From an uncultured bacterium (GTDB taxonomy: Bacteria > Eisenbacteria > RBG-16-71-46 > CAIMUX01 > WJJG01): a stretch of DNA of 54,470 nt. How positions within the stretch are numbered: position 1 is the first letter of the stretch; each line of letters starts with the position of its first letter. A program made the translations under genes and the position numbers. The notes beneath the pieces were generated by a model. That model had not been told where the DNA came from. It made no database searches and saw only the letters and a program-made list of their open reading frames with translations. Shown one piece after another: positions 38,820 through 45,091 of this stretch. The stretch is taken from NCBI GenBank assembly GCA_964388535.1, contig CAYMBA010000002.1, positions 1-54,470 on the forward strand, read 5' to 3'.

Positions 38820-38852
38820 AGCACACGCCCTGCCCACCGCAGGGTGTGTGCT
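38820..38852. other. 13-bp GC-rich hairpin after the pentapeptide gene
   Basis: AGCACACGCCCTG (38820-38832) pairs with CAGGGTGTGTGCT (38840-38852), with one G-T pair and a 7-nt loop. No T-run follows. Confidence 0.5.
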
Positions 38853-38904
38853 TAGGCGGAGGGATGTTGGTGTTTATTCAGTTGCGACAGGACCTGGATC
38901 AGTC

Positions 38905-40149
38905 CTACGCTTGAAGCTTTGGCAGCAGCGCCTTGATCTCCTCATCAGGCGCGATTGGGTAGCGATTACCACCGCGCATGATGTGGGTCAAATCCTCTCC
39001 GAGCTGCAATTGCATCAGGTGGTAACGCGCCCACTGTCGGGTGCTCATCCCCCGACGCTTCGCGTCATCTAGCTTCCAGGACCACATAATGTACTTAAAG
39101 GCGACCTTGTCTGGATCTGCATGGCGATCTGCAGTGCGCTCGGTCAGGATGTACCAGACTGCTACCAGCAGCTTGCGAGCGATGGCGACCGCGGCTTTGG
39201 TTGAACCGATGCGCCGCTCCAATCGCTCGTATTGAGCTTTCCAGTAGGGGTGAGTGTCAGCGGCACGCCAGGCGGCTTCCACCAGGATCCAGCGCAGCTC
39301 TTTGCGACCTTGCTTGGTGATGCGGCCGGTCCGGTGCTTCATCCCACTATCGTGGATAGAAGCGCCCAGGCCGGCGTAGCCGACGAGTTTCTTAGGATGG
39401 GAGAAGCGAGAGATATCGCCAATGGCAGCAAGAACTGTCAAGGTGACGATCAAGCCGAAGCCGGGCAGTTGGAGCAGAAAAGGTACCTGATCAGCCCAGG
39501 GCTCTGAGGTACTGAGCCGATAGAGTTCCTTCTCGATCTCTTCGAGCAGCTCATCGACGTGATCGATGGTGGCTAGATCATGGCGAACACGCATGCGCTG
39601 AGTGGGCGAGATATCGAGTTTATGCCACCACTCCCGATGCTTCTTGGTGAAGATCTTGCCTTGAGGAGACTTGAGGTTGTGCCGGTGGAGCAGACTGTGC
39701 AGGTGATTGCGAGCCCGAGTGCTCATCTGGACCAGGCGACGACGGTGTGCCATGAGTGAGCGGAGTTCACGCACTTCAACGGGAGGAACCCAGACTTCAG
39801 GAATGAGATCGGCGGCGAGGAGATGAGCCAACCGGAGGACGTCGTGCCGATCTGTCTTGACACGGGCTTCATCGATCCACTTGACCTTTGGGGGATGAGC
39901 AACGATGGTTCGATCAACCAGGGGAGCGACCTGGTCATAGATCTCCCAGGCATTGGTGGTGGCTTCGAGGACAACGTTGTCAGTGGAAAGCAGGTTTGTC
40001 TTAGCCCAGGCAGGCCATTTTTGCAGAGATATTCGGCGTGGATTGAGGATTATCTCCTGCTGCCGGTTGACGCCTCCAACGACCAGATAGTGCTTGTGGA
40101 GGTCGAGAGCCAGGAAGCGCTTTGATGTTGATTTTGGAGGGGAATTCAT
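38905..40149 (-). CDS. IS110-family (DEDD) transposase
   Basis: LALDLHKHYLVV, VVLEATTNAW and KTDRHDVLRLAHLL form the DEDD N-domain. The C-terminal Transposase_20-like region is LLQLPGFGLIVTLTVLAAIGDISRF...LVGYAGL..HDSG. Confidence 0.9.
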   Translation of the reverse strand: MNSPPKSTSKRFLALDLHKHYLVVGGVNRQQEIILNPRRISLQKWPAWAKTNLLSTDNVVLEATTNAWEIYDQVAPLVDRTIVAHPPKVKWIDEARVKTDRHDVLRLAHLLAADLIPEVWVPPVEVRELRSLMAHRRRLVQMSTRARNHLHSLLHRHNLKSPQGKIFTKKHREWWHKLDISPTQRMRVRHDLATIDHVDELLEEIEKELYRLSTSEPWADQVPFLLQLPGFGLIVTLTVLAAIGDISRFSHPKKLVGYAGLGASIHDSGMKHRTGRITKQGRKELRWILVEAAWRAADTHPYWKAQYERLERRIGSTKAAVAIARKLLVAVWYILTERTADRHADPDKVAFKYIMWSWKLDDAKRRGMSTRQWARYHLMQLQLGEDLTHIMRGGNRYPIAPDEEIKALLPKLQA

Positions 40150-40513
40150 CGTACACTCCTTAGTGAGAAGGTCAATGTCACTGACCGGATCGTAAGGGGC
40201 GCGGATTTTTAGGCAGGGAGATACACAAACCGATGCGGGCTCGGCCTGATGGCCGTCCCAGACGAGTTATCCGACGGGTGGACCAAATAACAACACGGGC
40301 TTGCGTAAGCATCCCATAGGCAGCTTCGGTCCGCCCTGACGCTCCGTGCCCCCGGTGCGTTCCCGTCTCCAGTCGAGAAGAGGATAGCACCGGCCGCGCC
40401 CCTTCACTACATACTAATAACACCTCGCTGATGCGGACGGGGTCAGCGAGGCATTTCGACGAGCTTGCAGCTTCCCTGGGTTCCGCCATAATGATTGAGC
40501 GTCCGAGCCGCCG
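40150..40513 (-). ncRNA. Candidate IS110 5' non-coding (bridge-RNA-type) transcript region
   Basis: Long non-coding flank upstream of the transposase, with local stems CTCGCTGA/TCAGCGAG (40424-40431/40443-40450) and CCGCATA/TATGCGG (40509-40535). The only ORF here (40178-40516) looks spurious. Confidence 0.35.
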
Positions 40514-40544
40514 CATAGCTCGAGGGCGTTATGCGGAGTAGCCT

Positions 40545-43041: not shown

Positions 43042-43809
43042 ATGTTTCGTGATCAGATAATCCAGTGGTTAAGAGATGGCGACGACGATGCAGCTGCTCG
43101 TCTTCTCTCAGATTGTGAAATCAGTCTTGTGTTTGTAGACCTCGCCTTAGATATGGCGGGAGATAGAGATTTCGAAATATATGATGCAGAGATTCTCGCA
43201 CCTCGTGCGGTATTGGATCGTATAGATGAAGAATATAAGAAAGAACAAGCTTCAATTGAATCGGCAATGACTGAACTAGCGCATACCTATCATTGGCACT
43301 TTAGAAGCATATCTTGGCTACCTGCTCCACCGACAGTCAAATCCCCAGTAGAAGAAGACTTGGGACAAATCCTTTCAGAGCTAGATTCTGCCAAGATCCA
43401 AAGATACTGGGAGAAGGCAATTTCACGCCGGGTAGATGATCCAGATGGGGCAATAACCGCCGCGAGATCTCTCCTCGAAAGTGTTTGCAAGTTTATACTA
43501 AAAAACGAAGGAGTTGAATTCTCCCGCAACACTGATTTACTCAAGCTGTATCGAATGACAGTAGAAATCCTATTTCTCACCCCAGAATTTCAAGAGAACG
43601 AATCTCTGCGTCAGGCTATGGGGAATGCCCAATCGATAGTTAATGCAATTGCCGCATTACGCAACCTAAAGGGAGATGCACATGGTACAGCTGAAGATTC
43701 ACGGTTGCCATCACCACACATAGCAGAGTTTGCCGTTAATATATCTGGCTCGTTATCTAAGTTACTGCTTGATGCCTGGCTCCAATCGGTTGATGACAAT
43801 GGCCCCTAG
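43042..43809 (+). CDS. Abi_C (abortive-infection C-terminus) domain protein, cassette ORF
   Basis: IVNAIAALRNLKGDAHGT matches the Abi_C RN..G.aHG signature. The start is taken at ATG 43042, 9 nt after the attC-like core; the ORF-track start at 42997 lies inside the attC-like site. Confidence 0.65.
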   Translation: MFRDQIIQWLRDGDDDAAARLLSDCEISLVFVDLALDMAGDRDFEIYDAEILAPRAVLDRIDEEYKKEQASIESAMTELAHTYHWHFRSISWLPAPPTVKSPVEEDLGQILSELDSAKIQRYWEKAISRRVDDPDGAITAARSLLESVCKFILKNEGVEFSRNTDLLKLYRMTVEILFLTPEFQENESLRQAMGNAQSIVNAIAALRNLKGDAHGTAEDSRLPSPHIAEFAVNISGSLSKLLLDAWLQSVDDNGP

Positions 43810-43836
43810 CACGCGCTGGAGCAACTGTCTTAGATG

Positions 43837-44796
43837 TCAAGCTAATGTATGTGATGATGGACATGGACTCCAGCGCTTGTTGTCCCGCATCATCGCGTTC
43901 AACGTTGTCAAGAGTTTTCTCATGCAGGCTGTGAGAGCGACCTTCTTCTCCTTACCGTTTCCAACCAACCGAGCATAGAAAGGCTTGATCGCCGGGTTGT
44001 AGCGACTGGCCGAAAGCGCTGCCATGTAGAGTGTAGCTCTCAAAGGTGCACGTCCACCCATGATGCGACGTTTCCCTGACTTGCGCCCGCTGTCGCTGTT
44101 CATGGGGGCTACGCCAACCAGGGCGGCGATCTTTTTGCGATCCAGCGTCCCCAGTTCGGGACAATCTGCGAGTAAGCTGGCGGCGGTGACAACGCCGACG
44201 GATGGAGCAGAGCAAAGCAGATCGGCTTTTGCTTTCAGCTCAAGGTCGCTTTGAAGAAGCGCTTCGACATCGGAGTCAAGCTCTTTAAGGGCTTGGCGCA
44301 GCCAATCAATGTGATGCTGCAATTGAAGACGCACGGCAGGGTGAGCATTGCGAAGGCGGTTTTTCTCGGCTGTGATCATGCGGTGAAGCTGGCGTCGGCG
44401 GGCAATCAGGCCTACAAGGCGCTGATGAGCCTCTGTTGAAGCCGGGTGAGCATGGGGGCGGACAACCTGGGCGAAATGAGCCAGGTTATGGGCGTCGATG
44501 CGATCGGTCTTCGCCAGGCGCCCATTGGCACGCGCGAAGGCACGAACGCGCCTAGGGTTGACGATCGCCACCGAGAGCCGTCCTGCGCTCAAGGTTCGGA
44601 AGGCGGCCTGCTCGTAACCACCGGTAGCTTCTAAGACGATCAGGGCGGGTTGGTGCTGCAAGAGCAGATTGGTGATCGCACGGATGCCTTCGAGGTCGTT
44701 GGAAAAGCGCCAGGATCTTTGGCTATTGCAAAGGGCTAGATCGAGATGGGACTTGGCGACATCGATGCCAGCAAAAATCTCGGGAGGATCGGACAT
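43837..44796 (-). CDS. IS110-family (DEDD) transposase
   Basis: [38 protein letters not shown] and the C-terminal [23 protein letters not shown]...[12 protein letters not shown]. Confidence 0.9.
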
Positions 44797-45050
44797 GGAA
44801 ACACCTCACTGTGTATATAATGGAGTTGCCCGCGCTAGTGAGATACGGTCTTCAAAGACCAATCAACTGTTCGGGCTGCAGGTAGAAAGGACACGGCGAT
44901 CCATGCTCCAGCACGGTCTTCGAGACCAGCGGACCTTCGATCTGCCGTGTCCACTTTTAATATACTAGCGGACCGGGGGTGAGGCGTCCGGGGCAAGCGA
45001 AGGTGTAATGAGGCAAGGAGAGCGGCCAGCCAAGGCGAATGCCCCGGCAG
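44797..45050 (-). ncRNA. Candidate IS110 5' non-coding (bridge-RNA-type) structured region
   Basis: The long-range stem GGACACGGC (44889-44897) / GCCGTGTCC (44944-44952) encloses the hairpin GGTCT-TCG-AGACC (44915-44927). A further hairpin GGTCTT-CA-AAGACC lies at 44847-44860. Confidence 0.4.
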
Positions 45051-45091
45051 CTTAGCTCGATGCCGTAAGGCAGAAAAGCAAGGGTATAGAT

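Follow-up and report, generated by a model that had tools for sequence, protein, structure and literature searches.

Two diverged insertion sequences (ISs) of the IS110 family lie within a row of gene cassettes in the genome of an uncultured bacterium of the Eisenbacteria, and very probably both are intact elements, directed by their respective guide RNAs to attC sites of this integrase-less array, where each entered the 5' (R''-L'') arm. Many bacteria capture genes mainly by means of integron cassette arrays, in which the attC sites are the parts that move. The DNA that we analysed is the stretch of 54,470 nucleotides that makes up positions 1 to 54,470 of contig CAYMBA010000002.1 (assembly GCA_964388535.1). 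We refer to this whole stretch as the window and give all positions in its coordinates. Element 1 occupies 38760-40419 and element 2 occupies 43820-44968, both on the minus strand. An earlier note on this DNA, made from the letters alone, had described two diverged IS110-family elements in the same orientation, antisense to the cassettes and next to a shared sequence of 22 bp, and had read them as a case of orientation-specific targeting of attC.

Ends of the elements and the attC sites they split

The recombinase of element 1 (38905-40149, minus strand) has 414 aa and that of element 2 (43837-44796, minus strand) has 319 aa. Both proteins contain an N-terminal DEDD (RuvC-like) and a C-terminal transposase domain (PF01548 and PF02371), and they score 225.3 and 225.8 bits against NCBIfam NF033542 ('IS110 family RNA-guided transposase'; cut-off 140), so that by domains and cut-off both are members of the IS110 family sensu lato, the RNA-guided DEDD/Ser recombinases. 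They are only 27% identical to each other and both open reading frames (ORFs) run antisense to the cassette ORFs, in full agreement with the earlier description. The element 2 protein aligns end to end with the recombinases of IS621 and ISCro4 (E 1e-37 to 1e-39) and keeps the D, E, D..D and Ser positions in the alignment to IS621. The element 1 protein matches these recombinases in the C-terminal domain only (E 1e-8), and its catalytic motifs are visible in a pairwise alignment with the element 2 protein. Each element is present as a single copy in the assembly, and tblastn matches in 72,556 plasmids reached at most 47% identity to the element 2 protein and 38% to that of element 1.

The ends of element 1 were taken from its relatives. 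A scan of metagenomes yielded 25 loci (L094-L118) that encode proteins with 61-96% identity to its recombinase. The blastn similarity to these loci is confined to ∼38760-40430, and similarity to at least 20 relatives ends at 38760 and 40419, beyond which even copies that are 80-93% identical inside the element become unalignable. Element 1 comprises 1,658 bp plus a duplicated TA core: the flank reaches up to 38759, the two core copies lie at 38760-38761 and 40418-40419, and the flank resumes at 40420. Between the core copies are a 3' non-coding region (NCR, 38762-38904), the recombinase gene and a 5' NCR (40150-40417). When the ends of the family are aligned, the right end is conserved, contains a -35-like hexamer and stops at TA, and the left end starts with TA followed by a -10-like hexamer. 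After joining through one TA the -35 (38776-38781) and the -10 (40411-40416), both on the minus strand, are separated by 17 nt. With 143 bp of non-coding DNA downstream of the gene and 268 nt upstream of it, element 1 fits only the first half of the IS110-group layout, which combines a long left end with a very short right end. The 143-bp 3' NCR contains a conserved hairpin. We considered a second guide beside this hairpin, near the CTTAG motif, and rejected it: its bases vary freely among the relatives while the target is constant. In four relatives (L095, L097, L098 and L099) a 28-bp stretch of the right end is duplicated in tandem (for example L095:2862-2917), and the -35 motif and the terminal bases occur twice before the flank. 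A repeat search listed no pair of subterminal or terminal inverted repeats for either element; by eye there is a weak gapped resemblance in element 1.

For element 2 we placed the ends by the alignment of the NCR family, the guide matches and the spacing of the junction promoter. Its 5' NCR (44797-44966, 170 nt) aligns with 37 distinct NCR sequences from 47 relative loci, which include copies on Klebsiella and Escherichia plasmids, and the homology to the relatives has its boundary at 44966. In the nearer subgroup every relative terminates in a conserved right-end motif followed by CT. Element 2 measures 1,145 bp plus a duplicated CT core, with flank up to 43819, core copies at 43820-43821 and 44967-44968, and flank again from 44969. 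A right end of 15 bp (43822-43836) is followed by the recombinase gene and the 5' NCR, and with 170 nt at the left and 15 bp at the right this element has the complete IS110-group layout. The earlier note had described a tiny 3' flank for both elements, which holds for element 2 and not for element 1. The -35 of the element 2 junction promoter (43835-43840) overlaps the stop codon of the recombinase gene and the -10 lies at 44959-44964, both on the minus strand, which gives exactly 17 nt across the joined ends; L017 and L072 show the same geometry. A junction at an AGT or TA overlap, which retains AAC for R'', was also tried and discarded. It gives spacings of 10-13 nt, and only the CT core gives 17 nt and fits the conserved right end plus CT. 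For both elements the spacing of 17 nt arises only with the ends given here, and a junction promoter is typical of the family (PMC11187229). About 40 protein clusters, at 75-99% identity, are close relatives of element 2. In the DNA collections, genome contigs held only relatives with at most 54% identity and viral contigs none, there was none in the order (35 genomes) or in the phylum sample (206 genomes), and plasmid DNA gave short pieces only.

Removal of each element in silico joins its flanks into a single site. To score such sites we used weight matrices built solely from attC arms beside element 1 relatives in other metagenomes, with the window left out. The left remnant of the site split by element 1, attC-A, lies at 38753-38761 (plus strand), 2 bp after the stop codon of a pentapeptide-repeat ORF. 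It holds the first bases of R'' and ends in the core copy at 38760-38761. The right part (40418-40534, plus strand) starts with the other TA and continues with the AC of R'', the L'' arm, the centre, the L' arm and R' (40528-40534). The reconstructed attC-A has a length of 121 bp and one deviation in R', scores 26.9 bits for the 5' arm and 23.7 bits for the 3' arm, and is collinear with the sites of L104 and L094. Among the relatives with both flanks, removal of the element restored ..TAAC.. in all 11 of the 11 readable left flanks. The sites restored in this way are 90-125 bp long; between an RYYYAAC box (R'') and a GTT-type (GTTRRRY) R' box they have a conserved 5' arm and a complementary 3' arm, separated by a variable centre. 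There are ∼18 distinct right flanks among these relatives, and wherever the flanks are readable the family sits at the same position in R'' and in the same orientation, antisense to the cassettes. A perfect 9-bp hairpin at 40422-40450 of the restored attC-A, formed as the L'' arm sequence re-occurs inverted just downstream, dominates the minimum-energy fold of this site in place of the canonical attC pairing.

The site split by element 2, attC-E, is organised in the same manner. Its left remnant (43803-43821, plus strand) consists of a degenerate R'' overlapping the stop codon of the Abi_C ORF, the start of the L'' arm and a core copy, AG at 43820-43821 (CT in the orientation of the element). 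The right part (44967-45071, plus strand) contains the second core copy, the remaining L'' arm, the centre, the L' arm and a degenerate R' (45065-45071), and reaches 22.3 bits with the 3'-arm matrix. Together they form a site of 122 bp, which aligns almost without gaps to the restored attC of L094 (79/125) and to positions 89-212 of contig C161 from the same genome (78/124). Element 2 is inserted into the conserved L'' arm, 14 bp inside the insertion point of element 1. As R'' and R' each deviate at one base, attC-E may already have been decayed.

The 22-mers at 40513-40534 and 45050-45071, which are identical at 17 of 22 positions as had been reported, are the L'-R' (3') arms of attC-A and attC-E. 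They are DNA of the target locus that lies outside the elements and is not read by the guides, and their resemblance reflects a single attC subtype, to which both sites belong. Their likeness is above chance: on both strands of the window they are the top two matches of the 3'-arm matrix (23.7 and 22.3 bits, with the next match at 19.1), and across the genome the only higher scores (31.0 and 26.5 bits) are those of attCs on contig C161.

The earlier note had placed the ends of the elements at 40512 and 45049, where the 22-mers would directly abut them as target, and had taken a recurring CTTAG pentamer as the mark of the opposite junctions. The 22-mers are as similar as it said and CTTAG is indeed found at 38851-38855 and 43829-43833. 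Both pentamers, however, are located inside the elements; the first lies 90 bp within element 1 at a position that varies among the relatives, and neither is conserved. The 22-mers begin 93 bp (element 1) and 81 bp (element 2) beyond the ends, as the relatives of element 1, at 80-93% identity over the element, are unalignable beyond 38760 and 40419 and the NCR homology of element 2 stops at 44966. With the ends proposed in the earlier note the reconstructed sequence is only 53 bp long and does not align as an attC (30/125 compared to 79/125), and the spacing of the junction promoter is lost as well. We consider this anatomy highly improbable.

It is similarly hard to regard the 22-mers as parts of the elements, that is as an outer left end or as a guide RNA, although a sequence like them is found upstream of most element 1 relatives. 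At those sites it recurs at a variable distance, behind DNA that is non-homologous and cannot be aligned. The same arm is also present in the C161 attCs, which carry neither element and include the two best-scoring arms of the genome, and in the window the 22-mer pairs with the 5' arm across the element. The view of the earlier note that the 22-mer is target DNA has been borne out, and we attach almost no credence to its being a part of the ISs.

Each element also stands between two cassette ORFs, much as a cassette does, and one might ask if the transposase genes are captured cassettes or landed between genes by chance, with nothing inserted into an attC at all. In that case the removal of an element should not restore one collinear attC, as it does for both, but leave two. 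The boundaries of the elements are furthermore not at G|TT crossover points, both elements are antisense to the cassettes, and element 1 relatives keep the same position and orientation in ∼18 contexts. There is very little to recommend this explanation, and we retain insertion into the 5' arms of attC-A and attC-E.

Guide RNAs and their targets

The bridge RNA of IS621 carries a left target guide with the same sense as the top strand of the target and a right target guide complementary to that strand, and both include the core (PMC11208160). The 5' NCR of element 2 shows this arrangement. From 25 family members RNAalifold predicted two units of stem, internal loop and hairpin for this NCR, with compensatory changes in 17 of the 23 consensus pairs. 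The target-binding loop lies at 44889-44952 (minus strand). Its 5' strand contains the left target guide (44928-44935), which is identical to the left flank and core at 8 of 8 positions, and its 3' strand contains the right target guide (44904-44912), which is complementary at 9 of 9 positions to the last two bases of the element, the core and the right flank. The right guide match was independently listed by the repeat search (pair I6). In the donor-binding loop (44828-44876, minus strand) one strand repeats the conserved right-end motif and the other is complementary to the core and the first bases of the left end. Element 2 has a target loop and a donor loop which share the core dinucleotide.

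The guides of element 2 follow their targets across the family. For 12 distinct guide pairs we compared the right guide to the right flank and found on average 7.1 of 8 matches, compared to 4.8 after shuffling; none of 10,000 shuffles reached the observed value. The left guide also visibly follows the left flank. These relatives have quite different targets that are not attC sites. L072, which is 54% identical to element 2, has near-identical guides and is located downstream of a typical L'-R' arm. Within the IS110 group, element 2 is an ordinary bridge-RNA element that is programmed onto attC. A perfect 15-nt match to its reconstructed target (flank, core and flank) occurs unoccupied at 19807-19821 of contig C22 in the same genome. 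Rfam contains no bridge-RNA family, and the two-loop region of element 2 (44818-44964, plus strand) gave a full-length match to RF02234 sX15 (38.9 bits, E 2e-5), which is below the gathering score of 55 and antisense to the recombinase gene.

The upstream region of element 1 is strongly conserved among its relatives. The consensus fold of 12 copies (RNAalifold) shows a stem, an internal loop and a hairpin at 40280-40332 (minus strand) which resemble a target-binding unit and present two loop strands of 8 nt. The 5' loop strand (40317-40325, minus strand) is complementary to the core and right flank, with 7 of 10 matches in the window and 6-8 of 10 in most relatives. The 3' loop strand (40288-40295, minus strand) has the same sense as the left flank and core and matches at 6 of 8 positions in the window and at 7 of 8 in most relatives. 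Compared to element 2 the order of the strands is reversed. The two variable bases of the left flank, next to a conserved GT-TA, covary with the loop, and only 46 of 10,000 shuffles reached the observed value. Element 1 is the more divergent lineage and is specialised on the R'' box.

The targeting of attC in a fixed orientation, as the earlier note had suggested, is supported by the collinear sites that are restored for both elements and by the constant R'' position and orientation of the element 1 relatives. The notion of a shared target is not: the sequences that the two elements read in the 5' arm differ and are 14 bp apart, the core being TA for element 1 and CT for element 2. By analogy to IS621, ISEc21 and ISKpn4, each element would excise as a circle. 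The joined ends would then create a sigma-70 promoter with the -35 and -10 spaced by 17 nt, from which the 5' non-coding region and the recombinase gene may be transcribed. One internal loop of the RNA is expected to pair, to the left and right of the core, with the two strands of the attC arm, and the second loop with the joined ends, whereupon the recombinase would exchange strands at the core. The orientation would be fixed because the guides read an asymmetric sequence. An attC with a split 5' arm should be disabled for recombination by an integrase, which would lock the neighbouring cassettes together.

Another explanation accepts the targeting of attC and assigns it to the recombinase protein, which would read the folded site, so that the guide matches would be incidental. 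attC sites are defined by their structure, the guide matches of element 1 are imperfect and its right-side covariation is weak, all of which would fit. The guides of element 2, however, match at 8 of 8 and 9 of 9 bases in positions fixed by homology (chance ∼4^-8 and 4^-9), and across the family the guides covary with targets that are quite different and are not attC sites. Within the array, insertions are confined to the attC subtype that fits the guides; the three other attCs are free of elements. Guidance by seekRNAs and bridge RNAs has moreover been established experimentally for this family (PMC11187229, PMC11208160). We judge recognition by the protein unlikely and prefer RNA-guided insertion.

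The cassette array and the weight of the evidence

The contig (C2) belongs to a metagenome-assembled genome of 2.9 Mb that is 92% complete. At ∼37.2-46.3 kb it carries a row of single ORFs, all in the same orientation and with imperfect palindromes between them. The ORFs encode a pentapeptide-repeat protein, a PD-(D/E)XK nuclease, a DUF3108 protein, an unknown protein, an Abi_C protein and a two-gene unit. Three attCs of this array, at 41418-41475, 42183-42252 and 42903-43032, have RYYYAAC and GTTRRRY boxes and fold into the canonical attC hairpin. Rfam contains no attC model. As attC we accepted sites with both boxes and imperfectly complementary arms, a length of ∼57-141 bp and a position directly after an ORF in a co-oriented array, and these features were found. 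The block is best read as a cassette array without an integrase. In favour of an integron context, an integron integrase (IntI) above the curated cut-off is encoded by 11 of the 14 genomes from the same family, and in the phylum sample 63 of 206 genomes have one; this tally includes one unpublished genome (G072), on which no result hinges. The genome of L072, the relative of element 2, has no IntI, and a scan with the attC arm matrices around six IntI loci of relatives, where only short flanks are present, gave no match. At the start of the window (1-126, minus strand) there is a D1-D4 fragment of a group II intron (RF02001, 85.5 bits), truncated by the start of the contig.

Unoccupied targets, which the earlier note had hoped to find as empty-site homologues, do exist. 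Targets of the element 2 type are present without an insertion in the attCs restored from element 1 relatives and on contig C161, and C161:2268-2290 is an unoccupied target of the element 1 type. Contigs C2 and C161 hold the two cassette blocks without an integrase that we encountered in this assembly. All three attCs on C161 (1-94, ∼2284-2443 and ∼2976-3145) are split at one point of the 5' arm by a non-coding element of 150-190 bp. It has terminal inverted repeats of 14-18 bp, resembles an attC-specific miniature inverted-repeat transposable element (MITE) and was found nowhere else in the assembly.

Several observations weigh against the insertion of both elements into attC sites under RNA guidance. 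No protein of the assembly exceeded the cut-off for the integron integrase IntI (TIGR02249; top score 65 bits compared to 265). Because this integrase was not found in the 92%-complete assembly, the sites are called attC by their sequence and architecture. The minimum-energy folds of both reconstructed sites are not the canonical attC hairpin, and in attC-E both R'' and R' are degenerate, with one base off the consensus in each. That element 2 habitually enters attC sites is suggested by the window copy, one relative with 54% identity (L072) and the guide matches. For element 1 the guides match their own flanks imperfectly (6/8 and 7/10), and the right-side covariation was not significant, as 2,037 of 10,000 shuffles reached the observed value; there is too little variation on that side. 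A donor-binding loop was not identified in element 1, where a 7-nt repeat of the right end (40228-40236) is the sole candidate. The -35 of its window copy starts with a G, whereas the consensus T was present in 21 of 21 relatives. Finally, the support for RNA-guided insertion of either element is wholly computational. The substitution in the -35 and the mismatches between guides and flanks may indicate that the window holds an old or weakened copy of element 1.

Relation to known elements and meaning

The IS1111-attC group, which comprises ISPa21, ISPst6, ISKpn4 and ISPa25, was reportedly described by Tetu and Holmes in 2008 and by Post and Hall in 2009. The targeting of attC by IS110-family elements is already known from this group and is found here in two further lineages. 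Elements of the group enter attC close to its 5' end and run antisense to the cassettes (PMC3001079), and for ISKpn4, ISPst6 and ISPa25 a seekRNA downstream of the transposase gene has been shown or predicted (PMC11187229). The two elements share with them recombinases of the IS110 family in the broad sense, antisense insertion at the 5' end of attC, the convergence of diverged transposases on attC, and an NCR-encoded RNA with short matches to both strands of the target. They differ in that the guide loops of both are upstream of the recombinase gene and not downstream, in that we found no repeats like the subterminal inverted repeats of 11-13 bp of that group in either of them, and in that the two of them occupy distinct positions with distinct cores; moreover, no plasmid-borne homologue is close to either. 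The strand order of the element 1 loop resembles that of IS1111-type seekRNAs (PMC11187229), yet the loop lies upstream.

Element 2 resembles IS621 and ISCro4 (PMC11208160; PDB 8wt6, 9t56) in full-length homology, in the catalytic residues, in a long left end with a right end of 15 bp and in a two-loop RNA that has the left target guide 5' of the right one, with the CT core in both pairings and a junction promoter. It differs from them in its target, an attC arm and not a REP-like sequence (repetitive extragenic palindrome), and the similarity of the proteins is remote. Element 1 is less like IS621 and ISCro4, with a match in the C-terminal domain only, the opposite order of the guides, a TA core and a second NCR of 143 bp. 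ISEc21 is of the IS110 type and has an upstream seekRNA. Its upstream NCR is essential for circle formation and targeting, its target is linear and there is no duplication beyond the shared core, but the target lies in transposase genes of the IS3 family (PMC11187229); we set it beside the elements described here by its published description only. Group IIC-attC introns (PMC3001079) are likewise selfish elements with antisense homing to the 5' end of attC, but as retroelements, equipped with a ribozyme and a reverse transcriptase, they work by an unrelated mechanism. sX15 and asX7 are a pair of complementary small RNAs of Xanthomonas from a multi-copy locus (PMC3300014). The region of element 2 matches RF02234 sX15 over the full model, and the Xanthomonas locus is multi-copy, as the end of an IS would be, but the family is not annotated as a bridge RNA and the match is sub-threshold and on the opposite strand. 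This suggests that RF02234 may describe the bridge-RNA region of IS110-type elements, possibly as the complementary strand.

A search of the literature found no description of IS110-group elements with a left-end guide that target attC. We tentatively propose, at somewhat less than even confidence, that the 5' arm of this attC subtype is a landing pad on which at least three unrelated elements (element 1, element 2 and the MITE-like element of C161) have converged, each at its own position, and that element 1 represents an undescribed subgroup of the IS110 family, which unites a TA core and two NCRs with an upstream guide loop whose strand order is IS1111-like.

By the reading preferred here, RNA-guided elements of the IS110 type outside the described IS1111-attC clade were programmed onto the arms of attC sites on two occasions in a single array. 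This supports the view of conserved attC arms as recurrent safe harbours for selfish elements, and it also supports the idea that the reprogramming of guides onto attC arms is evolutionarily easy. Insertions of this kind should freeze neighbouring cassettes together and can confuse the annotation of integrons; in the present array they misled the placement of the attC sites and of the element ends. The decoded pairs of guides and targets provide natural examples of how bridge RNAs are programmed.

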